64,000 bases of DNA from Minisyncoccota bacterium (GTDB taxonomy: Bacteria; Patescibacteriota; Minisyncoccia; Phycocordibacterales; JABMNX01): contig JAPHQU010000003.1 in NCBI GenBank assembly GCA_026195275.1, positions 71,852 through 135,851 on the forward strand. The letters are read 5' to 3'. Position 1 is the first letter of the stretch; each line of letters begins with the position of its first letter. The notes under the pieces were generated by a model, which saw only the letters and a program-made list of their open reading frames with translations, was not told the origin of the DNA and did no database searches. A program made the position numbers and the translations under genes. Shown here piece after piece: positions 9,586 to 46,967 of the stretch.

Positions 9586-10437
9586 ATGGAGAAAGAAGTA
9601 CTCATCAAGAAGACTGACGGGAGCATGGAGCCGTTTCAGAGCGGCAAGCTTCGGCGCTCGCTTCGGCGCGCCGGCGCGAGTGACGAGCATGTTGAGGAGA
9701 TCGTCGCTGAGGTGCTCGGTATGCTTGAGTCGAGGATGAGCACGACACAGATTTACAAGAAAGCTCATTCTTTGCTCCGTAAAAAAGAGGCGTGCACAGT
9801 AACGGCGAGGTATTCGTTGAAAAGAGCAGTCTTCGCACTCGGGCCAAGTGGTTTCCCATTTGAGGCATTCATCGGTGAGTTGTATCAAGCAGAAGGATAT
9901 CGTGTGAGTAACAACGATATTCTTGAAGGTCGCTGTGTATCACACGAGACTGATATGCTTGCCACTTCAGACAACAAGACCATTGCCGCGGAAATAAAAT
10001 TTCACAATCGCCTGGGGATTAAGACCGACCTTAAAGCTGCTCTTTACGTAAAAGCGCGATTCGATGACCTTGTTGGTGTCTACGATAAGAAGCTGGATGT
10101 GACGATTAGTGAAGGGGTGCTTATCACCAATACGAAGTTTACAAGTAACGCCGAGCGTTACGGAACATGTGCCGGACTCTCGATGATATCATGGAGTTAT
10201 CCGCATAAAGATGGCAATCTGCACGCGAGGATCATTGGTGCCGGTCTCCATCCGGTAACTTGCCTCCCGTCTATCTCAAGCAGGGAGAAGCGAATCTTGC
10301 TTGAGCACAACCTTGTCTTGTGTCGTGACATAAAAGAACACTCGGGCGAGTTGGTCAGATACGGTATCTCAGAGAAAAAAATACCCGTACTCCTTGAGGA
10401 GGCGTCAACCTTGTGTCAGTCCTGCGAGAAAGTGTAG
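9586..10437 (+). CDS. ATP-cone domain fused to a PD-(D/E)xK (Mrr-type restriction-endonuclease-like) domain
   Basis: The N-terminal LIKKTDGSMEPFQSGKLRRSL is ATP-cone-like, as in NrdR. The downstream FEAFIGELYQAEGYRV...HETDML...AAEIKFH fits a D-x(n)-E-x-K nuclease core. Confidence 0.6.
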   Translation: MEKEVLIKKTDGSMEPFQSGKLRRSLRRAGASDEHVEEIVAEVLGMLESRMSTTQIYKKAHSLLRKKEACTVTARYSLKRAVFALGPSGFPFEAFIGELYQAEGYRVSNNDILEGRCVSHETDMLATSDNKTIAAEIKFHNRLGIKTDLKAALYVKARFDDLVGVYDKKLDVTISEGVLITNTKFTSNAERYGTCAGLSMISWSYPHKDGNLHARIIGAGLHPVTCLPSISSREKRILLEHNLVLCRDIKEHSGELVRYGISEKKIPVLLEEASTLCQSCEKV

Positions 10438-23240: not shown

Positions 23241-23585
23241 ATGGAACACACTATCGACGCACAAGGAAAGAATCTCGGACGTGTAGCAAGCGAAGCGGCA
23301 CACCTTCTCATGGGCAAGGATACAACCTCGTTCCAGAAGAATGTCGTTGCAGACGTGACGGTTAAGATTGCGAACGCTGACAAGCTTGCGATTTCACCGG
23401 AGAAGGCGTCAAAGAAAGTCTACACACACTACACCGGACACCCGGGCGGCCTTCGCAAGCGCACACTTGAAGAAGTTGTCGAGAAGAAGGGTGTGGGAGA
23501 GGTGCTCCGCATGGCGGTTTATGGTATGCTTCCGGGGAATCGGTTGCGCGCCAAGCGAATGAAAAACCTGATCATCGAAGAATAG
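23241..23585 (+). CDS. rplM: 50S ribosomal protein L13 (short form)
   Basis: ...[21 protein letters not shown]...[12 protein letters not shown]... The ATG at 23241 follows the L17 stop. Confidence 0.9.
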
Positions 23586-23589
23586 TATT

Positions 23590-24000
23590 ATGGCAGACAT
23601 GAAACATAAAGAAGAATATATCGAGACTATCGGACGCCGAAAAACGGCAACCGCACGCGTGCGTATTTCTAAGACAAAAGATTCATCGATTGTGGTAAAC
23701 GAGAAAGATCTTGCAACACATTTTCCTACAACAGAACTCCAGAAAGTTGCTGAGTCGGCTCTCACACATGCTCCTGAAGGAGAAAATTTCAAAGTAACCG
23801 CGAAGATAGTAGGTGGTGGCATCCACGCACAGGCGGAAGCCCTCCGACACGGCGTTGCTCGCGCACTCACTAAGTACAATGAAGAGCTCCGTAAGGGACT
23901 CAAACAGGCAGGGTTCCTCAAGCGAGATCCACGAATGAAGGAGCGTAAGAAGTTCGGACTTAAGAAAGCGCGCAAGTCTCCACAGTGGAGCAAGCGATAG
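23590..24000 (+). CDS. rpsI: 30S ribosomal protein S9
   Basis: ...[12 protein letters not shown]...[19 protein letters not shown]...[12 protein letters not shown]. Confidence 0.95.
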
Positions 24001-24043
24001 TCGCACACACTTTTTTTGCGGCCGCACAGAGCCTTACGCAATT

Positions 24044-24081
24044 GGTATACACCATACATACTAGAACATTGGTGTATACCA
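24044..24081 (+). promoter_or_regulatory. Perfect 12-bp inverted repeat (TGGTATACACCA-N14-TGGTGTATACCA), putative repressor operator of the grpE-dnaK-dnaJ operon
   Basis: The repeat lies 17 nt upstream of the grpE ATG. It is neither CIRCE nor HAIR consensus. Confidence 0.55.
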
Positions 24082-24097
24082 TTATGTACGCAACAGT

Positions 24098-24673
24098 ATG
24101 CCAAAGAAGAAGATAGAAAAAATCGATACAGATACACAAGACATTGAATCAGTCGATGATGTTGTTCTTGAAGAAGAAGGTCTTGGGGTTCTTGATAAAC
24201 TCAAGAAAGTGCAAAAGAAGCTCAAAGAATGCGAAAAGGAGCGCGCTGAGTACCTCGATGGGTGGCAACGTGCTCGAGCAGACCTGGTAAACCGGGAGAA
24301 AGAGGCAGTAGTGGTGCGTACAGAATTAACTTCACGCGCACAAGAGGAAGTGTTTGAGCAGTTGTTTCCAATCCTCGATAGTTTTGACATGGCGTTCGCC
24401 AACAAGGATGTTTGGGAGTCAGTTGACAAGAACTGGCGTGTCGGTGTTGAGCACATCTACTCACAGGCACTTCAGGTCTTGAAAGATGCGGGAATTTCAG
24501 TTATTGATAATGCCGGGGAAGTAAACGACCCCGCCATACACGAAGCAGTCAAAACACAGGAAGTGGCAGAAGAAAAAGACGACGGGCGCGTACTCGCTGT
24601 CCTTCAGAAAGGGTACCGGAAGGGCGAGCGCGTATTGCGTCCCGCAAAGGTTATTATTGGAAAAAATAAATAA
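24098..24673 (+). CDS. grpE: Nucleotide exchange factor GrpE
   Basis: GrpE coiled-coil plus the C-terminal ...[26 protein letters not shown]. Confidence 0.9.
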
Positions 24674-24681
24674 ATAGTACT

Positions 24682-26589
24682 ATGGGAAAAATTTTAGGTA
24701 TAGACTTAGGAACAACCAACTCCGCAATGGCGTACGTTACCGGCGGAGAACCAACTATTGTTGAGAATGCCGAAGGAACACGCACCACGCCGTCAGTCGT
24801 TGCTGTTTCTAAGACGAACGAACGGCTTGTGGGCACACTCGCACGACGTCAGGCAGTCACGAACCCACAGAACACTATTTACGGTATTAAGCGATTCATT
24901 GGGCACCGTTTTGAAGATACTGCAGTACAGAAAGACAAAGAGACGGTTCCATACAACATCAAGAAGGGTGGCGACAATGGTGTGCTTGTTGAGCTTAATG
25001 GCAAAGACTACCGCCCAGAAGAGGTGTCAGCAATGATCCTCCAGAAGATGAAGCAGGACGCAGAAGCAAAGCTTGGTGAGAAGATCACTGAAGCGATTAT
25101 CACCGTTCCTGCATACTTCGACGATTCACAGCGCAAAGCAACAAAAGACGCCGGGAAGATTGCCGGACTTGAGGTGAAGCGCATCATCAACGAACCAACA
25201 GCGGCCGCGCTCGCATACGGATTTAATAAAAAGAAAGACGAGCAGATTGTAGTCTTCGACTTTGGTGGTGGAACCTTCGACGTCTCGGTTCTTGAGGTTG
25301 GTGATGAAGTTATTGAGGTAAAATCAACCGATGGTGACTCCCACATGGGCGGTCGCGACATCGACCAGGCGATTATTAAGTGGATTGTTGATGAGTTCAA
25401 GAAGGAAAGCGGTATCGACATCAGCAAAGACCCGCTCGCGCTCCAGCGACTTGATGAGGCAGCTGAGAAAGCGAAACTCGAACTCTCAACCGCAACTGAG
25501 TCAGAGATCAACATCCCGTTCATCACCTCAGATGCGACTGGTCCAAGACACCTCTTGCTCAAACTTACCCGCGCAACACTCGAAGAGCTCGCAAAAGAAT
25601 ACATCAATCGCTCAATTGAGATCACCAAGCGCGCGATCGAAGCGTCACCGTTTGAGATCAAAGATATCGACGAGGTGATCCTCGTTGGCGGGCAGACTCG
25701 TATGCCGAAGATTGTCGAGCGCGTAAAGGAACTCTTCGGTAAAGAGCCGAACAAGTCGATCAACCCGGACGAGGTGGTTGCGCTCGGTGCAGCAATTCAG
25801 GGCGGTATCATGCAAGGAGACGTAAAGGACGTACTTCTTCTTGATGTGATCCCGCTCTCGCTCGGTATCGAGACTCTCGGCGGTGTCGGAACCAAGCTTA
25901 TCGAACGCAACACGACCATTCCGACCTCAAAATCGCAAACATTCTCAACCGCAGCCGACAACCAGACCTCAGTTGAGGTGCACATTGTTCAGGGGGAGCG
26001 TTCGATGGCAGCTGACAACAAATCGCTCGGGCGATTCATTCTTGAGGGTATTCCACCGGCACCACGTGGCACACCACAGGTTGAGGTAACTTTTGACATC
26101 GACGCAAACGGCATCCTCAACGTGACCGCAAAAGACAACGCGTCAGGAAAGGAGCAGTCGATCCGCATAGAAGCACAATCAGGACTCTCAGATGAAGAAG
26201 TTGAGAAGATGAAGCAGGATGCTGAGGCGCACGCAGACGAAGACAAGAAAAAGAAAGAGCTTGTTGATGTCCGCAACACGTCTGAGCAACTCATTTACAC
26301 CGCAGAGAGCTCGGTTAAAGAGCACGGTGACAAGGTTGGTGAAGATGTAAAGAAAGAGATCGAGGAGAAGGTCGCGGCGCTTAAAGAGGTGAAAGACAAA
26401 GACGATCTCGACGCACTCAAAGCGGCATCTGAAGCACTCAGCACATCGCTCGCAAAAATCGGCGAAGCAATGCAACAGCAAGCACAATCTGAGACCCCTC
26501 CACAAGACGCAGAGCAGAAAGGAGAAAGCACCGGAGAAGAGAAACCGGGCGAAGAGCCAAACAACGACTCATCAGAAGAAAACAAATAA
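24682..26589 (+). CDS. dnaK: Chaperone DnaK (Hsp70)
   Basis: [12 protein letters not shown]..., [12 protein letters not shown] and the other Hsp70 signatures. Confidence 0.97.
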
Positions 26590-26602: not shown

Positions 26603-26633
26603 AAAAATCTTGACGTCGGACGTCAAGATTTTT
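26603..26633 (+). terminator. Bidirectional rho-independent terminator (palindrome ATCTTGACGTC-G-GACGTCAAGAT)
   Basis: Perfect 11-bp stem flanked by an A-run and a T-run. An identical hairpin recurs at 59927-59949. Confidence 0.8.
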
Positions 26634-26677
26634 GGGATTGGCGTTGATTTTTAGCTAAAGATGCGTACAATAGCCAC

Positions 26678-27767: not shown

Positions 27768-28265
27768 ATGCAAATCTTTGACACACTCTCAGGAGCGCTC
27801 ACGACAGACGTACTGATAATCGCGGCGGTCTTCGGGGCGCTCTTTTTCTTTGCCGCCAAACGCGGCAAGAGCAGAAGCATTGCGCTTATGCTCTCGATCT
27901 ACGTTGCTATTCTCTCATTTTTAAGCTTTCCGTTTCTTGATGAATTAACACTTCTCAAGAGCTCAGAAGTACAAGTGACCCTCTCACACATCGCCGTCTT
28001 TGCGCTCGGCACCTTCCTTGCGTACCTTATCATCAAGCGAAGTGTGTACGCCGAGTATCCGGGAGGTGCCGCACAAAAGTTCCTTCAAGCAGGGATACTT
28101 GCCGCCGGTTCAACCGCACTCCTCTTTGCGTTCGCATACCACACCCTCCCCGTTGCAACCCTCTACGACTTCAACCAGTCAATCGACAACCTTTTCTCAT
28201 CTGCCTACTTCTTCTACTGGCTCGTTGCTCCGCTTGGGGGATTGTATTTGGTGACGCGGCACTAA
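27768..28265 (+). CDS. Hypothetical multi-pass membrane protein
   Basis: 165 aa with 4-5 hydrophobic helices. Confidence 0.5.
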   Translation: MQIFDTLSGALTTDVLIIAAVFGALFFFAAKRGKSRSIALMLSIYVAILSFLSFPFLDELTLLKSSEVQVTLSHIAVFALGTFLAYLIIKRSVYAEYPGGAAQKFLQAGILAAGSTALLFAFAYHTLPVATLYDFNQSIDNLFSSAYFFYWLVAPLGGLYLVTRH

Positions 28266-29338: not shown

Positions 29339-30676
29339 ATGGAAAGAATAGAAAGAACATTGATCGGCGACCTGCGAGAGCACATCGACGAAGAGGTAAC
29401 CATCTCTGGGTGGGTCGACACCGCACGCGACCAGGGCAAGATGGCATTTTTTGATTTCCGTGACCGCACAAGTATGGTACAAGGTGTCGTCTTTGGTAAG
29501 CCTGAGGTGCTCGAGGTCGCGAAGACACTCCGCCCCGAGTGGGTGGTCTCGGTCTCCGGCAAGGTGAACAAACGCCCCGAGAAGATGATCAATGAGAAGG
29601 TTATGAACGGCGATATTGAGCTTGAGATTACCGGTATTGAGGTCTTGAGTGCGGCACACGAGCTTCCGTTTGATATGGATGCCGAGCTCAACCTCGACAC
29701 CTACCTCGACAATATGCCGCTCACGCTCCGCACCGGGCGTAGCCGCGCAATATTCAAAGTACAAGCAGAGATCGTCCGTGCGTATCGCACAGCACTCACT
29801 GAGCTCGGCTTCACTGAGTTTCAAGCACCAAAGCTTGTCGGCGACGATGCTGAAGGGGGCGGCAACGTCTTTAAGGTGGACTATTTCTATGATAAGGACG
29901 CGTACCTCGCGACCTCGCCACAGCTCTACAAGCAGATCATGGTCGGCGTCTTTGAGCGCGTCTTTGCAACCGGCAACGTCTTCCGCGCAGAAAAACACAG
30001 CACAACCCGTCACCTCAACGAGTACACGTCGCTCGATGCCGAGATGGGCTTTGTGAAAGACCACACCGACGTAATGACCACGCTCAGCGAAGTCGTCCGT
30101 CGTGTCTTGAAGCACCTTGAGGAGACGTGCGAAGCGGAGTTTAAAGTCATTGGTGCAACCTTCCCTCAGATGCCTGAAGTAATCCCGGTGATGAAGCTTC
30201 GCGAGGCGCAAGAGATTATCAACAAAGAGACGGGTGAAGACTGCACAAAGGAGCCGGACCTCGAGCCCGCGCACGAGCGATGGCTCTCAGAGTACGCGCT
30301 CAAAGAGCACGGCTCAGACTTTATTTTCATTACCCACTATCCGGTCTCAAAGCGCCCGTTCTACACCTACGAAGACGAAGAAGACCAAGGATTCACCAAG
30401 AGCTTCGACCTGCTTTTCCGCGGTGTCGAGCTCTCAACCGGTGGACAGCGCGTAGACGACCATGACCAGCTCGTAGAGAAGATCAAAGATAAGGGGCTCA
30501 ACCCGGAGAGCTTCTCATACTACCTCCAGGCATTCAAGTACGGCCTACCACCACACGGCGGATGGGGGATGGGGCTTGAGCGTCTCACCGAGAAGATGCT
30601 CGGACTCGATAACGTAAAAGAAGCGACACTCTTCCCGCGAGAGATAAACCGCATCGACACACTCCTTTCAGAATAA
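29339..30676 (+). CDS. aspS: Aspartyl-tRNA synthetase, short archaeal/eukaryal-type (class IIb)
   Basis: N-terminal OB fold, with LATSPQLYKQ (AspRS QSPQ-type rather than AsnRS TVSGQL), FRAE and GGWGMGLERL. It is 445 aa long. Confidence 0.85.
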   Translation: MERIERTLIGDLREHIDEEVTISGWVDTARDQGKMAFFDFRDRTSMVQGVVFGKPEVLEVAKTLRPEWVVSVSGKVNKRPEKMINEKVMNGDIELEITGIEVLSAAHELPFDMDAELNLDTYLDNMPLTLRTGRSRAIFKVQAEIVRAYRTALTELGFTEFQAPKLVGDDAEGGGNVFKVDYFYDKDAYLATSPQLYKQIMVGVFERVFATGNVFRAEKHSTTRHLNEYTSLDAEMGFVKDHTDVMTTLSEVVRRVLKHLEETCEAEFKVIGATFPQMPEVIPVMKLREAQEIINKETGEDCTKEPDLEPAHERWLSEYALKEHGSDFIFITHYPVSKRPFYTYEDEEDQGFTKSFDLLFRGVELSTGGQRVDDHDQLVEKIKDKGLNPESFSYYLQAFKYGLPPHGGWGMGLERLTEKMLGLDNVKEATLFPREINRIDTLLSE

Positions 30677-30688
30677 CCACACATCAAC

Positions 30689-32092
30689 ATGAAGATCACA
30701 GTCACCGCAAAGAAAGCATCGACGCGCCCGAAGGGCGTTGTTCGTATTACGCTCTCTGAGAAAGGGCAGACTAAGTTCATCGAAGCAGACGGAGTGACCG
30801 AATTGCGCATTAAGGTTGGTGCGATCAAGAAAGACGAGCGACGAAAGTTCGTAAAAGCGGTGCGCCGTGTGGTGCGCACCGCACAGCAGTACCAGTGCGA
30901 GAAAGTTGCTATCGACCTCAATGAGTTCACCCGCTTCACTGACCTCTCCGGCAAAGAGCTCGGCTCGACCATCACTCAGAACCTCGTCATGGCCGCCTAT
31001 GAGTTCCGTAAATTCAAAACCAAACCTAAAGATGGATGGAAAGATATTAAGGAACTCTTCTTCGCTAGCGTCTCCGCGAAGACAGTGTCTGAAGGAGCCC
31101 AAGAGGGTATCGTGATTGGGGAGATGGTAGATGAGTGTCGCACGATTGCAAACACGCCGGGAGGAGATATGACTCCAACATCGCTTGCCGCAGAAGCAAA
31201 ACGACTGGCGAAGGGTACCGGGGCTTCTGTGCGTGTGCTTGGTAGACGCGATATGGAGCGTCTTTCCATGGGAGCAATTCTTGGTGTTGCAAAAGGTTCT
31301 GTCGAAGAGCCTAAGTTCATCATCATGGAATACAAAGGGGGGAAGAAGTCTGAACGTCCAGTGGTACTTGTTGGGAAGGGGGTCACCTATGACACCGGTG
31401 GCATCAACCTCAAACCCTCATCTGCGCTTCTTGGGATGCACTTTGATATGTCCGGAGGATCAGCGGTCATGGCAACAGTTGCGCTTGTGGCAAAGCTCAA
31501 GCTCAAGAAGAATGTCATCGGACTTATTCCGTCGGTTGAGAATATGGCGTCCGGAAGCGCGGTGCGCCCCGGAGACGTGCTTACCACTATGTCAGGAAAG
31601 ACGGTTGAGGTCCTCAACACTGACGCCGAGGGGCGTCTCATTCTCGCTGACGCGCTCACCTACGCGAAGCGTTATAACCCAAAGCACGTAATCGATGTCG
31701 CCACACTTACCGGGGCATCACTTGTCGCGCTCGGACAACATACCTCAGTGGTGATGTCTCGCGATGACGCGTTTGCCTCGAGGCTTATTGAGCTCGGCGA
31801 AAAATCAGGTGACTACCTCTGGCGACTGCCGCTCTGGGAAGAATATGAAGAAGAGGTGCGCGGCCAAGTTGCTGACATCGCAAACTTGAGCACTAAGAAC
31901 CCGCAGTATGGTGGTGCCATCAATGGCGGCATTTTCCTACTTCAGTTTGCAAAAGATTTCATAAAGGATTGCTCGTGGGCACACATCGACATCGCCCCGC
32001 GTATGACCACGATTCCGAGCGACAACCTTGCCACTGGTGCGGCGGGGGAGCCGGTGCGGCTCTTGACCCGCTTCATAGCTGACCTTACATAA
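30689..32092 (+). CDS. pepA: Leucyl aminopeptidase (M17 family)
   Basis: NTDAEGRLILADAL signature and a VGKGVTYDTGG motif. Confidence 0.9.
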   Translation: MKITVTAKKASTRPKGVVRITLSEKGQTKFIEADGVTELRIKVGAIKKDERRKFVKAVRRVVRTAQQYQCEKVAIDLNEFTRFTDLSGKELGSTITQNLVMAAYEFRKFKTKPKDGWKDIKELFFASVSAKTVSEGAQEGIVIGEMVDECRTIANTPGGDMTPTSLAAEAKRLAKGTGASVRVLGRRDMERLSMGAILGVAKGSVEEPKFIIMEYKGGKKSERPVVLVGKGVTYDTGGINLKPSSALLGMHFDMSGGSAVMATVALVAKLKLKKNVIGLIPSVENMASGSAVRPGDVLTTMSGKTVEVLNTDAEGRLILADALTYAKRYNPKHVIDVATLTGASLVALGQHTSVVMSRDDAFASRLIELGEKSGDYLWRLPLWEEYEEEVRGQVADIANLSTKNPQYGGAINGGIFLLQFAKDFIKDCSWAHIDIAPRMTTIPSDNLATGAAGEPVRLLTRFIADLT

Positions 32093-32094
32093 AA

Positions 32095-32838
32095 ATGGAC
32101 GAGGAGTTTAAGATAAAAATCGAAGGGTTTGAAGGTCCGCTGGACCTTTTGCTTTCCCTTATTGAAAAGCGCAAGCTCCCAATCAATGACGTATCGCTGG
32201 CAGCGGTGACCGACGAGTATATTCAGTTCATTGAGAGACAGAAAGACTTTCCACTCTCACAAGCATCACACTTTGTACTCATTGCCTCGACACTCCTCCT
32301 TATCAAATCAAAGTCGCTTCTCCCAACACTCAACCTTACCGAAGAAGAGGAAGAGGACATCGAGAAACTTGAAGAGCGCCTCAAGCTCTACAAGCGCACC
32401 AAGGAACTGTCCGTGCATATCTCGGAGCGTTTTGGGAAACGTGTATTGCTCAGTGCACAGGACAGTAAATCGTTTGAGCCGGTCTTCTCCCCACCTCAAG
32501 ATGCAACACTCGCCTCACTTGGCGAGGCTGTGGCACATGTCATCGCGGCGCTTCCTAAGGTAAAAGCGGTTCCCGAGGCAATCGTTAAGAAAGTCGTGAG
32601 CCTTGAAGAGATGATCGACAACCTCACCGATAGGGTCACAAAGAACCTCCGCATGAGCTTCTTTGACTTCTCGAAGGCCGGTAAATCCATCGACAAGGAA
32701 GAGAAGGTCGAGGTTATTGTGGGATTCTTGGCTCTGCTTGAGTTGGTAAAACAGGGTATAATAAATGCAACACAAGAGAATAAATTCTCAGATATAACCA
32801 TGGAGACCGACACTGTCGGTATTCCTAAGTATGAGTAA
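32095..32838 (+). CDS. scpA: Segregation and condensation protein A
   Basis: The N-terminus FEGPLDLLLSLIEKRKL... is typical of ScpA. Confidence 0.85.
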   Translation: MDEEFKIKIEGFEGPLDLLLSLIEKRKLPINDVSLAAVTDEYIQFIERQKDFPLSQASHFVLIASTLLLIKSKSLLPTLNLTEEEEEDIEKLEERLKLYKRTKELSVHISERFGKRVLLSAQDSKSFEPVFSPPQDATLASLGEAVAHVIAALPKVKAVPEAIVKKVVSLEEMIDNLTDRVTKNLRMSFFDFSKAGKSIDKEEKVEVIVGFLALLELVKQGIINATQENKFSDITMETDTVGIPKYE

Positions 32839-32840
32839 GT

Positions 32841-33398
32841 ATGAACGAAAGTCTCTCAGCACAACTCGAAGCAGTACTCTTCTTTAAGAATGAACCCTTG
32901 AAGAAGACTTGGCTCGCAAAAACCCTCGGCAAGACCGAAAGCGAGATTGACGCCGGAGTCGCAACGCTCAAAGAACAGCTTTCCGGTCGGGGTATCACCC
33001 TTATGGAGAAAGATGGGGAAATAGCGCTCCGTACCGCACCCGCGTACAGTGAGTCGCTTATGGATATCCGTAAAGACGAACTTGCGCGTGACCTCGGTAA
33101 GGCTGGCCTTGAGACACTCTCGATCATCCTCTATCGCGGTCCGGTAACCCGCGCAGACATCGACTACATCCGCGGTGTGAACTCCACTTTTATCCTGCGA
33201 AGCATGCTCATCCGCGGACTTGTAGAGAAGGTCACCAACCCGAAAGACGCCCGTGCGTACTTGTACCAGCCGACCTTTGAGCTTCTCTCATACCTGGGAG
33301 TATCTTCCGTGGAAGAGTTGCCCGAGTATCAGGAGGTGCGTGCAGAGATTACTGTATTTGAGACGCAGAAAGAAGAAAAGGAAGAGCAAGCAGCATAA
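32841..33398 (+). CDS. scpB: Segregation and condensation protein B
   Basis: LEAVLFF...ITLMEKDGEIALRTAP... It is adjacent to scpA. Confidence 0.85.
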   Translation: MNESLSAQLEAVLFFKNEPLKKTWLAKTLGKTESEIDAGVATLKEQLSGRGITLMEKDGEIALRTAPAYSESLMDIRKDELARDLGKAGLETLSIILYRGPVTRADIDYIRGVNSTFILRSMLIRGLVEKVTNPKDARAYLYQPTFELLSYLGVSSVEELPEYQEVRAEITVFETQKEEKEEQAA

Positions 33399-33400
33399 CC

Positions 33401-34426
33401 ATGGAAGACCTACAGACACAAAACAATATCCCGGAAGACAATACCCCAGAAGCACCGCAGGAGCGCGCATCTGAGGAGACGATTATCGACCCACAGACAC
33501 TGCTTCGCGTAGGCTTGCTCGGAATCGTGCTCGTTATCATCGTGTACACCTTTGGTGAGCGAGCGCTTCCGCGCTTCTTTTCAACGGCAGCGGTTGTAGT
33601 GTCTGATACGCAGATAGAGGAAGCGATCGACCCTTTTACTCTCATCAACATCGAAGCCTCTGCCGCATATGTATATGACTTCTCAAATGACGAAGTGCTC
33701 TTCGCGAAAAATGAGTCTGCACAGCTCCCGCTCGCGTCTCTTACCAAGGTCATGACCGCGCTCGTAGCTTCTGAGAAAGTCTCAGCAGATACCGCGATCG
33801 TACTAAGTGATAAATCAATCGCAGTTGACGGTGATAGCGGTCTTAAGGCAGGGGAGGTGTGGAACTTTAAAGATCTCCTCGACTATACACTCGTCGTCTC
33901 TTCCAACGATGGCGCACACGCGATTGCCGGTGTGGCAGGCTCGTTTGAACGATCCACACAAGCCAATGAGAAAGACTCACATGCGGCTTTCGTCGAGCTT
34001 ATGAATGCAACAGCTCAAGAACTTGGGTTATTGCAGACCTACTTTATTAATGAAAGCGGACTTGATACGAATACCGAGGTGAGTGGGGGCTATGGCTCCG
34101 CGCAAGATATGGCGACGTTGCTTTCGTTTGTTGTGAGTGAGCGACCACATCTTCTCGAGGCAACCTCTTTTAATACTCTTCAGTTTGCTTCAGAGGACGG
34201 GTTCATCTACAATGCGACAAATACAAATGCCGCGATTGGTGTCATCCCGGGAATCATCGCCTCAAAGACCGGATATACCGAACTTGCTGGCGGTAACCTC
34301 ATGGTTGCATTTGATGCGGGAATCAATCGACCTATTGTTGCGATTGTCCTCGGGTCGAGCTTTGACGGGCGGTTTAGCGATATGGAGCAACTCGTGAACG
34401 CGACACTTACTAAAATAATCCAGTAA
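33401..34426 (+). CDS. D-alanyl-D-alanine carboxypeptidase (serine-type, PBP5/S11-like)
   Basis: SLTK (SxxK), SSND (SxN) and KTGYT (KTG) motifs, with an N-terminal TM anchor. Confidence 0.85.
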   Translation: MEDLQTQNNIPEDNTPEAPQERASEETIIDPQTLLRVGLLGIVLVIIVYTFGERALPRFFSTAAVVVSDTQIEEAIDPFTLINIEASAAYVYDFSNDEVLFAKNESAQLPLASLTKVMTALVASEKVSADTAIVLSDKSIAVDGDSGLKAGEVWNFKDLLDYTLVVSSNDGAHAIAGVAGSFERSTQANEKDSHAAFVELMNATAQELGLLQTYFINESGLDTNTEVSGGYGSAQDMATLLSFVVSERPHLLEATSFNTLQFASEDGFIYNATNTNAAIGVIPGIIASKTGYTELAGGNLMVAFDAGINRPIVAIVLGSSFDGRFSDMEQLVNATLTKIIQ

Positions 34427-34428
34427 TC

Positions 34429-35517
34429 ATGGGAACCATAGTAATCATCGACATTGTACGCGTCATTGTGCCGGCGGCGCTGGCATTCTTTATTGGAATT
34501 ACGATTACGCCGGTTATTGCGCATTATCTCTACAAATACAAAGCGTGGAAGAAGAAAGCAGGGAAGGGTGTTGGCTACGGCGGAGGGGCTACCCCGATTT
34601 TTGATGAACTTCATAAAGGGAAAGATACCGGGACTCCGCGCATGGGCGGAATCGTCATCTGGGCGAGTGTGTGTATCACAATTATCGGCATTTGGTTCCT
34701 TAACGTGATCGGCCCGAACCCAATCCTTGAGAGCTTCAACTTCCTCAGTCGAAGCCAGACGTGGCTACCGTTCTTGGCACTCATGGTCGGTGCTATTGTT
34801 GGACTCGTCGACGACGTTCTCGTCGTGCGTGGCACCGGGAAGCACTTTGCTGGTGGTCTCCCGCTCTCACAACGACTCCTTACCGTGGGGTCTGTCGCGC
34901 TCTTCGCCGCATGGTGGTTCTACGACAAACTTGAAATCAGTAGTATCAATATCCCATTCGACGGCTCACTTGAACTCGGTGTGTTCTTCATTCCATTTTT
35001 CGTACTCGTCGCACTCGCAATTTACGCAAGTGGCGTCATTGACGGTATCGACGGTCTCTCTGGGGGCGTGTTTGCAACCATCTTCGCGGCATATGCCGGT
35101 ATCGCGTTCTACCAACAGCAGTACGACATCGCAGCACTCTGCGCGACTCTCGTTGGCGGTATTCTGGCATTTCTTTGGTTTAATATCCCACCGGCGCGTT
35201 TCTACATGACCGAGACTGGCATCATGGGGCTCACCATGGCGCTCACCGTGGTCGCATTTATGACCGACGTGCTCGGCGAGGGGAACGGCGTCTTCGCGCT
35301 TCCTATCGTCGGACTCCTTCTCGTCTTTACCGTACTCTCTGTGGTGATCCAGGTTACTTCAAAGAAGCTTCGGGGAGGGAAGAAGGTTTTCAAGGTTGCA
35401 CCGCTCCACCACCACTTTGAAGCGATTGGTTGGCCGGGCTACAAGGTCGCCATGCGCTACTGGGTCATCAGCATCATCTGCGCCGTATTGGGCATCATCG
35501 TCGCCCTAGCAGGGTAG
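34429..35517 (+). CDS. mraY: Phospho-N-acetylmuramoyl-pentapeptide transferase
   Basis: A polytopic MraY/WecA family protein with a D-D-x-x motif region (VGLVDDVLVV). Confidence 0.9.
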   Translation: MGTIVIIDIVRVIVPAALAFFIGITITPVIAHYLYKYKAWKKKAGKGVGYGGGATPIFDELHKGKDTGTPRMGGIVIWASVCITIIGIWFLNVIGPNPILESFNFLSRSQTWLPFLALMVGAIVGLVDDVLVVRGTGKHFAGGLPLSQRLLTVGSVALFAAWWFYDKLEISSINIPFDGSLELGVFFIPFFVLVALAIYASGVIDGIDGLSGGVFATIFAAYAGIAFYQQQYDIAALCATLVGGILAFLWFNIPPARFYMTETGIMGLTMALTVVAFMTDVLGEGNGVFALPIVGLLLVFTVLSVVIQVTSKKLRGGKKVFKVAPLHHHFEAIGWPGYKVAMRYWVISIICAVLGIIVALAG

Positions 35518-35547
35518 AGTTCGAATCCCAGACAGCCAGTAAGTCAA

Positions 35548-35577
35548 ACACCTCACTCATGTGAGGTGTTTCTTCCG
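35548..35577 (+). terminator. Hairpin (acacctcac/gtgaggtgt, loop tcat) followed by ttcttcc, a terminator candidate after mraY
   Basis: 9-bp perfect stem with a weak T-tract. Confidence 0.5.
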
Positions 35578-35601
35578 GCTATTATGAGCTCTGTTTGGGT
35601 A

Positions 35602-35625
35602 AACGCCTCATACGTATGAGGCGTT
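35602..35625 (+). repeat. Perfect 24-nt palindrome AACGCCTCATACGTATGAGGCGTT
   Basis: The element is fully self-complementary. It sits 21 nt upstream of the ftsW ATG, between mraY and ftsW. Confidence 0.6.
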
Positions 35626-35645
35626 GATTTGGTATACTGATACAC

Positions 35646-36737
35646 ATGAAGACTATGGATCGGCCGCTTTTGCTTATCACTGTGATACTCGCGGTGGTCG
35701 GTTTCTTTATTTTTACCTCGGCTTCGCTCGGGCTCCTCGCGCGTGAAGGGCCACGCTTTTCTTCTATAGCGTTCAACCAGATATTCTTTGGTATGATATT
35801 GGGCACCGCGGCGCTCCTCCTCACTTCAAAGATACGTTTTCGCATGTGGAAGATGTACGCACCGTATATATTCGGTCTCTCGATACTTGCGACCCTCCTT
35901 GTGTTTATACCCGGGCTCGGGCTTGAGCTCCATGGCGCAAAGCGCTGGGTTGAAGTATTCAAGTTTTCATTCCAACCCGCTGAGATCCTCAAACTCGGAT
36001 TTGTTATCTACCTCGCCGCATACCTCGCCGGAGCACGACAAAGGCTTCATGAGTACCGCCACGGGCTCATTCCGTTTGCGCTCATTCTCGGCGTGCCGAG
36101 TCTGATCTTACTCCTGCAACCGGACACCGGGACAGTGCTGGTAATCGCGTCAGCCGCCACGGCGATGTACATCGTCGCAGGAGGAAAGATTCGTGATCTC
36201 CTTATTCTTTTTGTTATAGCAGTACTCGCGCTCGGAGCGCTTGTGTATCAGCGTCCATACCTACGCGACCGTGTTGAGTCATACATCAGTCCTGAAAAGC
36301 ACCTACAAGAGTCGGGCTACCAGCTCAATCAGTCACTCATTGCAATTGGCTCCGGTGGCATCTTCGGGCGCGGCTTCGGACAAAGCATCCAAAAGTTCAA
36401 CTATCTTCCTGAGCCGATAGGGGACTCAATCTTCGCGGTAGCGGCGGAAGAATTCGGCTTCCTCGGGGCGCTGGTGCTTATATTCCTCTTCCTTGCATTT
36501 TGCTTCCGGGGACTCAAGATTGCTTCCCGAGCACCAGACTATTTCAGTGGACTCTTGGTTGTGGGTATTGTTATACTGATTGTATCGCAGTCTTTTATCA
36601 ATATCGGTTCCATGCTTGGCGTTTTCCCGCTGACCGGTTTGCCACTGCTCTTTATCAGTCATGGTGGCACTGCGCTTCTATTCGCTCTTGCATCGGTCGG
36701 TATTGTCTTGAATATCTCTAAGTATCAAAAACATTAA
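35646..36737 (+). CDS. ftsW: SEDS-family peptidoglycan glycosyltransferase FtsW/RodA
   Basis: 10-TM SEDS protein with a conserved C-terminal ...GLPLLFISHGGTALL. Confidence 0.88.
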   Translation: MKTMDRPLLLITVILAVVGFFIFTSASLGLLAREGPRFSSIAFNQIFFGMILGTAALLLTSKIRFRMWKMYAPYIFGLSILATLLVFIPGLGLELHGAKRWVEVFKFSFQPAEILKLGFVIYLAAYLAGARQRLHEYRHGLIPFALILGVPSLILLLQPDTGTVLVIASAATAMYIVAGGKIRDLLILFVIAVLALGALVYQRPYLRDRVESYISPEKHLQESGYQLNQSLIAIGSGGIFGRGFGQSIQKFNYLPEPIGDSIFAVAAEEFGFLGALVLIFLFLAFCFRGLKIASRAPDYFSGLLVVGIVILIVSQSFINIGSMLGVFPLTGLPLLFISHGGTALLFALASVGIVLNISKYQKH

Positions 36738-36740
36738 TCT

Positions 36741-37871
36741 ATGCGTATTGTCTTTACAGGAGGAGGAACCGGCGGACATTTCTACCCAATCATCGCAGTG
36801 GCTGAGAAGGTGCGCTCGATCGCAGCTGAGCAGAAACTCTTGCCCCCAAAGATGTACTACTTCGGACCAGAACCGTTTGACGCACGAGCGCTTTTTGAAC
36901 TCGACATCGAACACCGCTACAGTAGCGCCGGCAAGATGCGCACATACCCGTCGATCTGGAATTATATCGATATGGCAAAGACGCTCTGGGGTGCCTTTCT
37001 CGCGCTTATACAGCTTTTTGTTATCTATCCGGATGTCGTCTTCAGCAAGGGAGGGTATGCGAGTTTCCCAACGGTATTTGCGGCACGCCTCCTGCGCATC
37101 CCGGTGGTGGTACACGAGTCAGACGCAGTGATGGGGCGGGCAAATGCCTGGGCGGCAAAATTCGCAGACAGTATCGCCATCTCATACCCCGGTGTCGCAA
37201 AAGAGTTCGGCGACGAGCGCGTGGCGCTCACCGGTAACCCAATCAGAGAGGATCTTTTCCGCCCAGAGAAGGAGGGTGCCTTTGAGTATCTTAATCTCGA
37301 ACCAAGTGTTCCGGTTATTCTCATTCTCGGTGGCTCGCAAGGTGCACAAGCGATAAATGACACGGTCATCGACGCGCTCGCCGAGCTTCTGCCGCGCTTC
37401 CAAGTAATCCATCAGACCGGTGAGAAGAATCTTGAGAGTGTGGAGCGTCGTGCATCGGTGCTCCTAGCTGACCCTCAACAGAAGAGGCGCTACCACACCT
37501 TTGGTCTCTTAAACACGCTCGCGCTCCGCATGGCCTACGGCGCTGCAGACCTTGTTATATCTCGCGCCGGTTCAGGTGGAATTTTCGAAACCGCAGCAGC
37601 GCACAAACCAAGTATCATTATCCCGATACCACGAGACATCTCACGTGACCAAAGCACGAACGCGTTCTCATATGCGCGCTCCGGTGCCGCCATCGTGATT
37701 GAGCAAAACAATCTCACGCCACATCTGCTCTCAAGCGAGATAATCCGACTCTTCGATAATCCTGATGAAATGGAGAAGATGGGGAAGGCTGCTGAAGGAT
37801 TCGCGCGATCAGACGCCGCCAATGTTATCGCGAAGAAGTTGGTCAACATCGGTATTGAGCACGAAAACTAG
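36741..37871 (+). CDS. murG: UDP-GlcNAc:undecaprenyl-PP-MurNAc-pentapeptide GlcNAc transferase
   Basis: The N-terminus RIVFTGGGTGGHFYPIIAV is diagnostic of MurG. Confidence 0.92.
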   Translation: MRIVFTGGGTGGHFYPIIAVAEKVRSIAAEQKLLPPKMYYFGPEPFDARALFELDIEHRYSSAGKMRTYPSIWNYIDMAKTLWGAFLALIQLFVIYPDVVFSKGGYASFPTVFAARLLRIPVVVHESDAVMGRANAWAAKFADSIAISYPGVAKEFGDERVALTGNPIREDLFRPEKEGAFEYLNLEPSVPVILILGGSQGAQAINDTVIDALAELLPRFQVIHQTGEKNLESVERRASVLLADPQQKRRYHTFGLLNTLALRMAYGAADLVISRAGSGGIFETAAAHKPSIIIPIPRDISRDQSTNAFSYARSGAAIVIEQNNLTPHLLSSEIIRLFDNPDEMEKMGKAAEGFARSDAANVIAKKLVNIGIEHEN

Positions 37872-37914
37872 AACTGTTATGTTTTTTCTAAAGAAACTAT
37901 TTTCATCTAAAAAA

Positions 37915-39243
37915 ATGGTCACGCGCATCGCACCAAGTCCGACTGGGCTTTTCCATGTGGGAACGGCACGCTCAGCACTCTTTAATTATCTTGTTGCTAA
38001 AAAATATGGAGGTGAGTTTATCGTGCGCATTGAAGACACTGACCGAGAACGCAGTAAGCCCGAATACGAGAAAGATATCCTTGATGGCATGGAATGGCTC
38101 GGACTTTCATGGGACGCGCTCTATCGCCAGTCTGAACGGACCGATATTTACACGAAATATCTTAAAAAACTCATCAGGAGTGGTCATGCGTATATCTCTA
38201 AAGAAGAAAGTAAAACAAAGCCGGGGGAGACAGTCGAAGTGGTGCGGCTCAAGAACCCCGGTGAAGACGTTACTTTTACCGACCAGATCCGCGGGGAGAT
38301 AACGTTCAATACTGCCGAGCTAGGGGATTTTGTCATTGCGAAGTCACTCACCGAGCCGCTCTATCATCTTGCGGTTGTTGTTGACGACTTTGAAATGGGA
38401 GTGACCGACGTGATCCGCGGAGAAGACCATGTCTCAAACACCCCACGACAGATCCTTATCCAGCGCGCTCTGGGCATCAAGCAACCAAAATATGCCCATA
38501 TTCCACTCATTTTGGCCTCAGATCGCTCAAAACTCTCTAAACGGAAGGGAGCAACCTCTATCACCGAATACCGCAAATTAGGCTACCTCCCCGAAGCGCT
38601 TGTGAACTACCTTGCGCTCCTTGGCTGGAATCCGGGAACCGAGAAAGAGGTCTACACGCTCGACGAGCTTGTGTGTGACTTCTCACTTGAACAGGTGCAG
38701 AAAGGTGGTGCTATATTTGATACCCAAAAACTTAACTGGTTCAACAAAGAACACGTCAGGGGGTTGCCGCACGAAAAACTTCTCTCGCTAATCGAGAGCG
38801 CTCTCCCGAAGCGTGTGAAGGAACTGCCACAATACTCAAAAGAACGCTTAGATAAAGCGAGCAAGGTGTTCATTGAACGTGTTGAGTCTCTCAGTGAACT
38901 CACCGAGCTCGCTGAAGCAGGGGAGTTTGATTACTTTTTTGACACCCCCAAGATGGAAGCAAAACTCTCTTGGAAAGATGACCCAATAGAGAAGAGTACT
39001 GGGAACCTCAGCGGTGTGCTTGAGCGTATTGATGTGGTTCCAGAAAACACATTCACCGCTAGCTCAGTAAAGGAAGCTGTTTGGGATTTTGCGGGAGAGC
39101 AGGGGAGGGGGTCAGTGCTCTGGCCGATGCGTGTCGCGCTCTCAGGAAAAGATAAATCTCCCGACCCATTTGAGCTCTCTGAGATACTCGGGAAGGATGA
39201 GACAAGTAAGCGCTTGCGAGACGCGTATGAAAATAGACTTTAA
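37915..39243 (+). CDS. gltX: Glutamyl-tRNA synthetase
   Basis: TRIAPSPTGLFHVGTARSA (HIGH-type) and KLSKRKG (KMSKS). An alternative ATG at 37879 would add 12 aa. Confidence 0.92.
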   Translation: MVTRIAPSPTGLFHVGTARSALFNYLVAKKYGGEFIVRIEDTDRERSKPEYEKDILDGMEWLGLSWDALYRQSERTDIYTKYLKKLIRSGHAYISKEESKTKPGETVEVVRLKNPGEDVTFTDQIRGEITFNTAELGDFVIAKSLTEPLYHLAVVVDDFEMGVTDVIRGEDHVSNTPRQILIQRALGIKQPKYAHIPLILASDRSKLSKRKGATSITEYRKLGYLPEALVNYLALLGWNPGTEKEVYTLDELVCDFSLEQVQKGGAIFDTQKLNWFNKEHVRGLPHEKLLSLIESALPKRVKELPQYSKERLDKASKVFIERVESLSELTELAEAGEFDYFFDTPKMEAKLSWKDDPIEKSTGNLSGVLERIDVVPENTFTASSVKEAVWDFAGEQGRGSVLWPMRVALSGKDKSPDPFELSEILGKDETSKRLRDAYENRL

Positions 39244-40570
39244 TATTACACAAACCCTGCTTGCGATACTCATGCTGGCATCCTTTGGTGTTGGTGCTTC
39301 GTTCGTGTCCGCACAAAGTGTGGATGAGCTTAAGGGGCAAATCACTGATTACAACACGAAGATCGCTGAGCTTGAAGCCGAGATCGCCAAGTATGAAGCA
39401 CAGCTTTCCGAGATTGGCGGAGAGAAACAAACACTTCAAAAAGCTGTTGATGAACTCCGCGTGTCCCGCAAGAAGCTTCTCACCAATATACAGATCACGC
39501 AGAACCGCATCTACTCAACCACACTCCAGATCGAGGAGTTGGGAGGCGAGATTGTCGACAAACACAGCAGAATCGAGAACGGGGCAGAGGCGGTCGCGCG
39601 TTCTCTTCGTCACATCAATGAACTTGAGTCACAGTCGATGATTGAAGCGGTACTCGGACACGATACTCTTAACGAATTCTGGGATGATCTTGAGACCATC
39701 CAACAGTTCCAAACCAGGATCGCTGCCGAGGTGCGGGAACTCATTAGGCTTAAGACGGAGCTTGAGACAACGAAGAAAGCGTCTGAGCGAAAAAAGGCTG
39801 AGCTGACGAATTACAATACCGAACTCTCAGGACAAAGAGTGGTACTCGAAGGCACGCTCTCTGAGACAAGCGTAAAGTTTAAGAGAACCGCACAAAAAGA
39901 GTCCGAGTACCAAGCGCTTCTCAATGAGAAAATAGAAGCTCGCGAGAAATTTGAGAGCGAACTCCGCGATATCGAGTCACAGCTGCGCGTCATTATCGAC
40001 CCGAGTAGCATCCCACCAATCGGCGCTGGGGTGCTTCGCTGGCCGTTTAGTGAATCATATATGTCAAAGTGTCCTTCGTATGAAGGTTACCTTGGCAATA
40101 TCTATTGTATTACCCAGTACTTTGGCAACACGCCATTTGCATCAAAGAACCCACAAGTCTACAACGGAGGAGGACACAGCGGTGTCGACTTCCGCGCCTC
40201 AACCGGAACCAAGGTACAAGCAGCACTCGCCGGTACTGTCGTTGAAACCGGAGACACCGACCTACAACGCGGTTGTTATTCATATGGAAAATGGGTCCTT
40301 ATTAAACACAACAACGGACTCTCGACACTCTACGCACACCTCTCACACATCTCCGTGCGTGCGGGAAAAGGAGTCGGAACTGGAGAAGTGATTGGCTTTA
40401 GCGGAAACACCGGTTACTCAACCGGCCCACACCTCCACTTTAGTGTCTTTGCGAGTCAGGGTGTCCAAGTAGTACGCCTCGGAGACGTGAAGAAAATCAC
40501 CAACTGTAGTGATGCACGCATACCAGTTGCGCCACATGACGCGTATCTTAATCCGCTTTCATATCTCTAG
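39227..40570 (+). CDS. M23 family peptidoglycan metalloendopeptidase with N-terminal coiled-coil (EnvC-like)
   Basis: Signal peptide and a long coiled-coil, then HSGVDF...YAHLSHISV...GNTGYSTGPHLHF, the LytM/M23 HxxxD...HxH motifs. It overlaps the gltX end by 17 nt. Confidence 0.85.
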   Translation: MKIDFNITQTLLAILMLASFGVGASFVSAQSVDELKGQITDYNTKIAELEAEIAKYEAQLSEIGGEKQTLQKAVDELRVSRKKLLTNIQITQNRIYSTTLQIEELGGEIVDKHSRIENGAEAVARSLRHINELESQSMIEAVLGHDTLNEFWDDLETIQQFQTRIAAEVRELIRLKTELETTKKASERKKAELTNYNTELSGQRVVLEGTLSETSVKFKRTAQKESEYQALLNEKIEAREKFESELRDIESQLRVIIDPSSIPPIGAGVLRWPFSESYMSKCPSYEGYLGNIYCITQYFGNTPFASKNPQVYNGGGHSGVDFRASTGTKVQAALAGTVVETGDTDLQRGCYSYGKWVLIKHNNGLSTLYAHLSHISVRAGKGVGTGEVIGFSGNTGYSTGPHLHFSVFASQGVQVVRLGDVKKITNCSDARIPVAPHDAYLNPLSYL

Positions 40571-40668
40571 GGTTTGACCTGTGGAATACTTTGTTGTGCT
40601 TCAACACCCTGGATGGGAGAATTAGTATAGGTCGTATTTATACGTTTCTACAAAGTACATATAGCTAT

Positions 40669-40893
40669 ATGGATATGCTCAATAAAGCTGCGTGGCTTCT
40701 CGTCGTCATTGGCGCACTCAACTGGCTCCTCTTCGCTCTTACCGGAGCTGATGTTGGATCATGGGTTGGTGGCATGGACGGAACCATTGCAAAAGTCATC
40801 TACATCCTCGTAGGACTCTCAGGAGTATGGATGATCGTCTCAAAATTCATGGGAGGCGGATCAGACATGAATACGGGTGGTCAGCAGATGTAA
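40669..40893 (+). CDS. DUF378-like small membrane protein
   Basis: ...AAWLLVVIGALNWLLFALTG...VIYILVGLSGVWMIV pattern. The start is ambiguous between 40669 and 40675. Confidence 0.5.
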   Translation: MDMLNKAAWLLVVIGALNWLLFALTGADVGSWVGGMDGTIAKVIYILVGLSGVWMIVSKFMGGGSDMNTGGQQM

Positions 40894-40912
40894 TCTCCAC
40901 TACCATTCACTC

Positions 40913-40944
40913 AAAACACCCCGCATCAGCGGGGTGTTTTGTTT
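40913..40944 (+). terminator. Rho-independent terminator
   Basis: Stem aacaccccgc/gcggggtgtt with loop atca, followed by ttttgttt. Confidence 0.8.
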
Positions 40945-41006
40945 GTAAAAAGAAAACCCACCCACAGAATTACTGGGGTGGGGTAGAGAGAGGTCATCTC
41001 TTTTGT

Positions 41007-41309
41007 TTAGTTACCATCCATGAACACAGGACTGGGGAAGTGAAAAGTCCGCGGCTCAGTCTTCTCTTCTTCTGAGAGCGGAGTCACCGTAAAGCTGGTC
41101 AACACTCTTACATCAGGGAGCTTTACGGACGCATCAGAGTCTGTCAGATCCGCATAGAATTGCGAGGCGGGAATGAATTTATAGTGCCGCTCCACCAGAG
41201 CCTCTTCCTTCATATCGCCCTCCAAGGCAGCAAGCATCTGGAGAAGAAGCCACGTTGGGTCTATGGGTTGTTCTTCCGTGACACTCGATATTTTCTCTTT
41301 TTCAGCCAT
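41007..41309 (-). CDS. Hypothetical small acidic protein
   Basis: About 100 aa from MAEKEK. A hairpin (cccaccc/gggtggg) and a T-run lie downstream on the minus strand. No homology was recognised. Confidence 0.35.
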   Translation of the reverse strand: MAEKEKISSVTEEQPIDPTWLLLQMLAALEGDMKEEALVERHYKFIPASQFYADLTDSDASVKLPDVRVLTSFTVTPLSEEEKTEPRTFHFPSPVFMDGN

Positions 41310-46786: not shown

Positions 46787-46967
46787 CGAGCCGAGGCACT
46801 AATATAAGATGTAGTGCTCTCATTATCGCAAAATCATCCCCCAAAATCAATCACAGGGTCTCTCGCCTCCTCGTGACCTCCTCCATCACAGGAGTGTCGC
46901 GTGTCCGGTGCATTGTCTGTGTATGGTGTCGTTGTAAGAACACGCATGAGTGGTATACAATACATAC

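Follow-up and report, generated by a model that had tools for sequence, protein, structure and literature searches.

The subject of this analysis is an inverted repeat in a 64,000-nt stretch of the genome of an uncultured, ultra-small, Kaiserbacteria-like Minisyncoccota bacterium (hereafter the window), lying in the spacer between rpsI, which encodes ribosomal protein S9, and the chaperone genes grpE and dnaK. The 12-bp inverted repeat before grpE is real and non-random. The reading preferred here, tentatively and with a probability of roughly 0.38, is that it forms an RNA stem-loop within a read-through transcript, in the spacer that separates rpsI from grpE; sequence alone cannot tell such a folded RNA signal from a docking site for a repressor. 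The parts of the repeat and its surroundings are as follows, with their state in L033 (Logan SRR29408775), the closest relative.

24039..24058, plus strand: conserved left block CAATTGGTATACACCATACA, made up of the left arm and 4 nt on either side; 19/20 identical in L033
24043..24054, no strand: left arm TGGTATACACCA, a near-palindrome TGGT-ATAC-ACCA whose first 8 nt are the extended -10 word TGGTATAC, without the final T of the hexamer
24055..24069, no strand: spacer or loop TACATACTAGAACAT, 15 nt, its 5' TACA kept in L033
24070..24081, no strand: right arm TGGTGTATACCA, reverse complement of the left arm at every position
24083..24090, plus strand: block TATGTACG, conserved as TAAGTACG in L033, downstream of the right arm and before the ATG
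24096..24104, plus strand: start-codon segment GTATGCCAA, complementary to TTGGTATAC of the left arm over 9 bp with one G-U, in both genomes

A repeat finder returned the two arms as 12/12 complementary with 15 nt between them, and the order across 24039-24100 is CAAT-TGGTATACACCA-TACATACTAGAACAT-TGGTGTATACCA-TTATGTACGCAACAGT-ATG, the right arm ending 16 nt before the grpE ATG (24098). The original prediction, made from the letters of the window, had described a perfect 12-bp inverted repeat upstream of grpE that extends to 13/14 pairs, and both statements agree with the count obtained here (24041 pairs with 24083, while 24042:24082 is a T:T mismatch); its spacer of 14 nt and its start at 24044 were each off by one. 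Twenty block-shuffled copies of the window each contained at most one perfect repeat of this class (arms >=12 nt, loop 6-40 nt), with a mean of ~0.1 per copy. A second copy of the pattern GGTATACNC-N8-30-GNGTATACC was not found elsewhere in the 64 kb at up to three mismatches, and there were no further copies of the repeat in the window or in any fetched relative locus. The block at 24083-24090 is able to pair with the 5' half of the right arm. Neither a 10-codon upstream open reading frame (ORF) at 24084 nor an in-frame N-terminal extension of grpE is conserved, the latter being interrupted in the window by an in-frame TAG at 24062.

GrpE and S9, searched against 5.8 billion proteins, recovered L033 as the only close relative, its GrpE being the best match after the single record of the window's own. 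Its gene order is the same, and its proteins are 90.6% (DnaK), 89.7% (S9), 85.8% (DnaJ) and 71% (GrpE) identical to those of the window. Other relatives stand clearly further off, their DnaK reaching ~87% identity at best when comparable lengths are aligned, and the GrpE relatives in species-representative genomes come from Candidatus Kaiserbacteria and other Paceibacteria/Parcubacteria metagenome-assembled genomes. Register-by-register comparison with the L033 rpsI-grpE spacer (CAATTGGTATACGCCATACAAAAGATACGCGCGTATACCTAAGTACGAGTGTAGTATG) showed that pairs 2-10 of the stem are kept and that pairs 1, 11 and 12 are lost. Inside this 9-bp core the only change is at pair 9, where A:T has become G:C (A24051 to G and T24073 to C), and it is compensatory. 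The gap between the two halves of the core is 19 nt in the window against 16 nt in L033, the arm centres lying 27 and 24 bp apart, and the right arm stays 16-17 nt from the ATG. No alignment with L033 is possible for the 38 nt from the rpsI stop to the left block. A standard for such a pattern is offered by the dnaK-dnaJ spacer of the same two genomes, in which a terminator hairpin is kept with compensatory changes and the dnaJ promoter is almost unchanged; conserved islands in these spacers thus mark functional elements, and by that standard the repeat region is one. RNAalifold, run on a MAFFT alignment, misplaces the right arm. More distant Kaiserbacteria loci (L001, L034, L035, L036 and L038-L043) are without the repeat, which is, among the sequences compared, lineage-specific and known from two genomes. 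The original prediction had named random occurrence at many non-promoter sites, or the want of conservation upstream of grpE, as grounds for discarding it; what was found is a single copy in 64 kb that is kept in L033, the only close relative available.

Evidence that the spacer is transcribed from upstream comes from what surrounds the repeat. No terminator was detected after rpsI, a scan of 23500-24700 showing only two sites, both of them inside grpE, and the 3' end of rpsI forms no significant hairpin; the repeat is the sole strong hairpin after that gene, and the first canonical terminator comes after dnaK. A sigma-70 promoter, either TGnTAnnnT 6-10 nt before the ATG or TTGnnn-N16-18-TAnnnT, was likewise not found in 24001-24097, a consensus scan included. 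The left arm reads TGGTATACA, without the last T of the -10 hexamer, and its L033 counterpart TGGTATACG is the same in this respect; a -10-like CATACT at 24057-24062 inside the spacer of the repeat is not kept in L033. Promoters of the sigma-32, sigma-B, extracytoplasmic function (ECF) and sigma-54 types conserved between the window and L033 were not seen in a comparison made by eye only. A survey of promoter layout at every gene start in the window showed the usual intergenic arrangement to be a GC-rich, short-loop terminator with a T run, followed by TGnTAnnnT 6-10 nt before the ATG. A search for that pattern gave 16 extended -10 sites 3-14 nt (mostly 6-10) before the ATG of long ORFs, including those of ftsW (TGGTATACT, 7 nt, ATG), trpS, dnaB, a P-type ATPase and RmuC. 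At least 14 genes have the extended -10 at 6-10 nt (for example at 35630, 28338, 49915 and 56991, and at 56962 and 54259 on the minus strand), and leaderless or very short-leader transcripts seem to be the norm in this genome of the Candidate Phyla Radiation (CPR). A GGAGG Shine-Dalgarno (SD) sequence is used by some internal genes. In many Paceibacteria the rpsI-grpE gap is only 4-14 nt (L003, L029-L031, L064-L066), so that grpE would commonly lie within the ribosomal-protein transcript, which suggests that co-transcription of rpsI and grpE is the common state in that group. Given the lack of an rpsI terminator, the lack of a standard grpE promoter and the adjacency in relatives, the 97-nt spacer is probably transcribed from upstream, and the repeat can then probably fold in RNA.

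Under the preferred reading a read-through mRNA would run from the ribosomal-protein genes via rpsI into grpE-dnaK, carrying the repeat, and the stem-loop would form on that mRNA with its base 16 nt before the grpE AUG. As an intercistronic structure it would set the level or survival of the grpE-dnaK message relative to the ribosomal-protein part, whether as a determinant of processing or stability, as a partial barrier to transcription or as an organiser of an initiation region that has no SD sequence. The repeat, its significance, its folding energy, its conservation in L033 and the gene layout around it are direct results; transcription of the spacer, formation of the hairpin in vivo and its role are inferred. 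The isolated hairpin is predicted at -17.8 kcal/mol (z = -4.2) in the window and at -12.6 kcal/mol (z = -3.3) in L033. Pairing that is kept while spacing changes is counted in favour of an RNA stem-loop, as is the finding of neither a second copy nor a regulator gene. Intercistronic mRNA stem-loops, whether stabilising hairpins or those of the repetitive extragenic palindromic (REP) kind, are comparable, since here too a stable stem-loop without terminator features stands between cistrons of a probable single transcript, at a position that is kept while the sequence varies among lineages. The repeat differs from REP-like hairpins in being present in single copy and not as a dispersed family, in its 15-nt loop and in having a 5' arm far more conserved than the 3' arm.

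Other lineages have repeats of their own in this place. Unrelated inverted repeats ending 13-17 nt before the grpE ATG were found in L001, L039, L043, L006 and L005, and the presence of different sequences at one position favours a role that depends on structure over one that depends on sequence. The repeat of L001, TTACGTTAC-N5-GTAACGTAA, is of a type common to L039 and L043. When these three are aligned 92% of cells are paired, and there is one U:A to C:G double change, a 1-nt shift in spacing and two one-sided changes, each of which gives U-G on the sense strand. These changes point toward RNA; as a statistical pattern in three sequences it is not significant, 156 of 500 shuffles being as good. 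L006, a distant Parcubacteria relative, carries at 2079-2127 two perfect 19-nt palindromic boxes ATCAAGGG-N3-CCCTTGAT, inverted and 30 bp apart, the pair stopping 16 nt short of its grpE ATG, and each arm is a perfect 8-N3-8 palindrome (p ~1.5e-5). Its relatives with GrpE 80-86% identical have spacers of only 6-32 nt and no such repeat, for which reason the L006 repeat is taken to be a recent insertion. A Paceibacteria subgroup (L010, L012, L013, L015 and L019) shows a further arrangement, with a grpE promoter TTGnnA-N16-17-TATAnT inside an A/T-flanked hairpin and the -35 hexamer in the loop, so that terminator and promoter appear to occupy the same DNA.

Several observations weigh against an RNA stem-loop. 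The right arm is only 8/12 identical in L033, in contrast to the 19/20 of the left arm and its flanks, where equal constraint on the two would be expected of a plain hairpin. The arms are near-palindromic in themselves (p ~0.005), a feature unusual in an RNA stem but characteristic of protein boxes, and the promoter word TGGTATAC lies within the arms; a transcript starting just past the left arm would preclude the hairpin. L033 has lost 3 of the 12 pairs and its minimum-energy fold omits the hairpin. The antisense strand folds better than the sense strand in both the window and L033, and across 22 rpsI-grpE spacers there is no consistent bias of one strand over the other. An unstructured loop of 15 nt is large for a functional RNA hairpin, the covariation amounts to a single pair in two sequences, and no Rfam family matches: nothing was returned at gathering thresholds, and searches at E <=10 yielded spurious microRNA hairpins only.

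Chaperone operons are classically under inverted-repeat operators such as the controlling inverted repeat of chaperone expression (CIRCE), bound by HrcA, and the HspR-associated inverted repeat (HAIR). Like CIRCE, the present repeat stands directly before a grpE/dnaK operon, with the start codon only a few tens of nt away. The two differ in form, CIRCE being 9-N9-9 whereas here the arms are 12 bp with a 15-nt spacer, their sequences are dissimilar, and CIRCE is kept across phyla whereas this repeat is confined to two genomes. CIRCE is also active as a transcribed mRNA element. HAIR resembles the repeat in being an inverted repeat before a dnaK operon. A scan of the window for CIRCE (TTAGCACTC-N9-GAGTGCTAA) gave 0 matches at <=3 mismatches, and the HAIR pattern CTTGAGT-N7-ACTCAAG gave 5 at three mismatches against 3.1 expected, none of them in 23900-24200; the statement in the original prediction that the repeat is neither CIRCE nor HAIR is thereby upheld. 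The CtsR box RGTCAAA-NAN-RGTCAAA had 8 matches at three mismatches against 6.6 expected, none upstream of grpE.

The corresponding regulator genes were looked for as well. No HrcA domain was found among the ~64 ORFs of the window; hrcA often lies directly before grpE, and here the gene in that place is rpsI. The hspR gene is frequently found at the end of the dnaK operon. Here the ORF after dnaJ (27768-28265) encodes a 165-aa hydrophobic membrane protein with no MerR match, and an hspR-like regulator gene in that place was ruled out. Pfam searches of the same ORFs revealed no regulator gene for the repeat, the only candidates being a sigma70_r4/HARE-HTH protein (5044-6072) and an ATP-cone protein (9586-10437). 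The former, of 342 aa with an N-terminal sigma-70 region 4 followed by HARE-HTH, is the only clear DNA-binding protein found in the window. Neither Pfam, at E up to 1 for unannotated ORFs, nor tblastn, with a NagR sequence and a GntR-like consensus as ad hoc queries, detected a GntR/HutC gene in the window or the 11.5 kb of L033. The genes before which the original prediction proposed to seek further copies, groESL, clpB and lon, lie outside the window, and the fetched loci likewise have no gene for GroEL, GroES or ClpB.

Two boxes near a promoter are a common operator layout, and a DNA operator, the idea of the original prediction in refined form, is the close rival of the RNA stem-loop. The two arms would then be two 12-bp near-palindromic boxes TGGTnTAnACCA, each bound by a dimer of a putative repressor, possibly a GntR/HutC-like winged helix, which would either block a weak promoter overlapping the left box or act as a roadblock to polymerase coming from rpsI, release under stress raising grpE-dnaK; this is on balance doubtful, though only somewhat less probable than the preferred reading. 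Self-pairing is 5/6 in each arm. GG-N6-CC within TGGT-N4-ACCA matches the dre palindrome GTGGTCTAGACCAC of NagR/DasR, a tentative likeness. Boxes of the dre kind are palindromes with GT-N-TA-N-AC and flanking GG/CC half-sites six nt apart; the arms fit TGGTnTAnACCA with GG and CC at this distance, at positions contacted by NagR, whose co-crystal with GTGGTCTAGACCAC shows base-specific contacts at G-7, G-5 and G-4 (PMC4333415). Both arms in the window score 10/10 against TGGTnTAnACCA, the left box of L033 9/10 and its right box only 6/10; this right box keeps one full half-site and G-4, having lost G-5, and native dre sites often lose G-5 in one half-site (PMC4333415). The dre sites of NagR and DasR differ in their targets, which are amino-sugar genes and not a chaperone operon. 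The conserved left box and flanks overlap the extended -10 word TGGTATAC of the ftsW and corA promoters, and the left arm starts with this word, which makes it plausible that an operator overlaps a promoter-like element; a roadblock to polymerase in the rpsI-grpE spacer could also do without a promoter of its own. A 15-nt direct-repeat alignment of the boxes (ATTGGTATACACCAT / ATTGGTGTATACCAT) shows flanks common to both in direct orientation, and the paired palindromes of L006 before grpE are of a comparable kind. Set against this, the shift of the box centres from 27 to 24 bp does not keep helical phase, and a compensatory change as the only core substitution has a chance of ~0.1 under an operator model. 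The only other matches to TGGTnTAnACCA at one mismatch in the 64 kb are two in coding sequence (4 in total against 1.05 expected); there is no further box in the window beyond chance, and no second site in the 64 kb or the 11.5 kb of L033. A GntR or other helix-turn-helix regulator is wanting in the searches described above, and there is no standard promoter present to repress. Different repeats occupy this position in four or more other lineages, L006's being absent from its close relatives, and an operator model would need a different repressor for each lineage in organisms with very few regulators. The original proposal of a different repressor stands in part: the repeat is real, non-random, conserved and outside CIRCE and HAIR, but a protein operator is not established, given the change in arm spacing and the failure to find a regulator gene. 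The fuller version, in which the arms are a box pair for an unrecognised CPR stress repressor, possibly GntR/HutC-like, that gates grpE-dnaK at a weak promoter or against rpsI read-through and replaces HrcA/CIRCE and HspR/HAIR in this lineage, is rated unlikely.

The remaining explanations are less probable. The left arm TGGTATACA might simply be a weak extended -10 with a start near 24058, the right arm being an inverted, decoy-like copy and RNA polymerase the sole protein, with effects through promoter competition, pausing or temperature-dependent melting. The word TGGTATAC is strongly enriched (five occurrences in the window, those of ftsW and corA included, against 0.74 expected) and marks real promoters, and the left block, with the downstream CCATACA, is conserved in the manner of a -10, discriminator and start region, the dnaJ promoter being similar. 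A promoter alone is nevertheless improbable. Neither hexamer, TATACA in the window or TATACG in L033, has the -7 T found in each of the 16 promoter-like sites of the window, by construction of the TGnTAnnnT pattern; the consensus promoter scan was negative, a 40-nt leader would be unusual for this genome, and the exact 12-bp inverted copy and the compensatory change are left unexplained. The same low probability attaches to the palindrome having no function, as a product of template switching or inverted duplication around the palindromic GTATAC that is neutrally carried. The internal palindromy of the arms fits a mutational origin, and repeats at this spot are lineage-specific and insertion-like, as in L006; the retention of the repeat in L033 with a compensatory change, while the rest of the spacer is unalignable, and the same conservation pattern at other functional intergenic elements speak against it. 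An RNA thermometer or translational switch, with the left arm pairing either with the right arm (AUG free) or with GTATGCCAA (AUG hidden), is very improbable. It shares with ROSE and FourU a 5'-proximal structure at a heat-shock gene, and the 9-bp complementarity of the left arm to the AUG region is found in both genomes, but that segment is fixed by coding sequence (MPK). Known thermometers are imperfect, weak helices that sequester SD or AUG and melt within the physiological range, whereas this stem is perfect, very stable, predicted still to be folded at 55 C and covers neither; ROSE, FourU and other Rfam thermometers gave no match. Constrained folding favours arm-arm pairing by 6.5 kcal/mol in the window and AUG sequestration by 4 kcal/mol in L033, and with this opposite preference a riboswitch-like alternative pairing was rejected. 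Least probable of all is an intrinsic terminator of the ribosomal-protein operon. The repeat is the only strong hairpin after rpsI, but it has a 15-nt loop, an AT-rich stem (5/12 pairs G-C) and no T run, TTATGT following it, where the terminators of this genome have loops of 1-5 nt, GC-rich stems and flanking A/T runs. Intrinsic terminators in general have loops of 3-8 nt. The terminator scan was negative, and complete termination here would leave grpE-dnaK silent, the last 16 nt before the ATG having no promoter.

The genes and elements around the repeat are these.

23590..24000, plus strand: rpsI (ribosomal protein S9; Pfam Ribosomal_S9, E = 5e-39), last gene of the upstream ribosomal-protein cluster
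24098..24673, plus strand: grpE (Pfam GrpE, E = 1e-32), with an N-terminus MPKK common to relatives
24682..26589, plus strand: dnaK (Pfam HSP70, E = 9e-248)
26603..26633, no strand: canonical terminator-like hairpin AAAAATCTTGACGTC-g-GACGTCAAGATTTTT after dnaK, ending the grpE-dnaK unit; kept in L033 via compensatory changes
26644..26671, plus strand: the dnaJ gene's own promoter TTGATT-N16-TACAAT, 6 nt before the ATG; kept nearly base for base in L033
26678..27760, plus strand: dnaJ (Pfam DnaJ, DnaJ_C and DnaJ_CXXCXGXG)

Upstream of grpE, Pfam identifies the genes for L17, L13 and S9. The palindrome of the dnaK-dnaJ spacer, AAATCTTGACGTC-n-GACGTCAAGATTT, occurs twice, at 26603-26633 and again at 59925-59951 between genes for a Na/Ca exchanger and a methylpurine glycosylase; it resembles a bidirectional terminator. 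In L033 the dnaK-dnaJ copy is retained as GGGGGACGTCgGACGTCCCCC, through compensatory changes. At 35602-35625, directly before the extended -10 of ftsW and downstream of another canonical terminator (35546-35571), is a perfect palindrome of 24 bp, AACGCCTCATAC joined to GTATGAGGCGTT. The mechanically assigned GTG start of corA at 46950 is probably wrong (46950-46971): TTGTAA-N16/18-TGGTATACAAT is followed 6-8 nt on by an ATG at 46969, which fits the promoter-to-start rule of the genome.

Further observations concern the rest of the window. In the leucyl-tRNA synthetase (2122-4956, 944 aa) the editing domain is followed immediately by a NUDIX hydrolase domain (PF00293, residues 388-506, E = 3e-14), which is unusual as an insertion or fusion. 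The GC skew changes sign near 32-40 kb (window ~30000-42000); genes are on the plus strand up to ~42 kb, after which minus-strand genes also occur (42-47 kb and 52-57 kb), a pattern expected at a replication terminus.

The repeat was also sought outside the locus. A metagenome scan with the specific pattern GGTATACRCCATACN{4,16}GYGTATACC returned one contig, which is unrelated and poor in ORFs, and a loose pattern scan of viral contigs gave 20 matches, mostly ordinary long hairpins or coding sequence. Two phage families in IMG/VR have arrays of 7-8 GTATACAC (GGTATACAC) repeats with partly 21-bp spacing (L046 400-580 and L049 820-1100; also L053, L054 and L059), situated between a primase/helicase-like gene and a SNF2 helicase gene. 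These arrays are probably origin iterons, and the 9-mer that they have in common with the repeat arms is judged to be a coincidence.

The general importance of the element is limited by its occurrence in two known genomes. Almost nothing is known of the regulation of stress genes in ultra-small uncultured CPR bacteria, even whether it exists. In a genome that relies mostly on extended -10 promoters 6-10 nt before the start, grpE-dnaK departs from the rule: where a standard promoter would be expected it has a conserved inverted repeat unlike any known heat-shock control element. An operator function would point to a new repressor-box pair in a lineage poor in regulators. An RNA stem-loop would exemplify chaperone genes tuned inside a ribosomal-protein transcript, in keeping with the recurrent hairpins of unrelated sequence at this place in the sister lineages.

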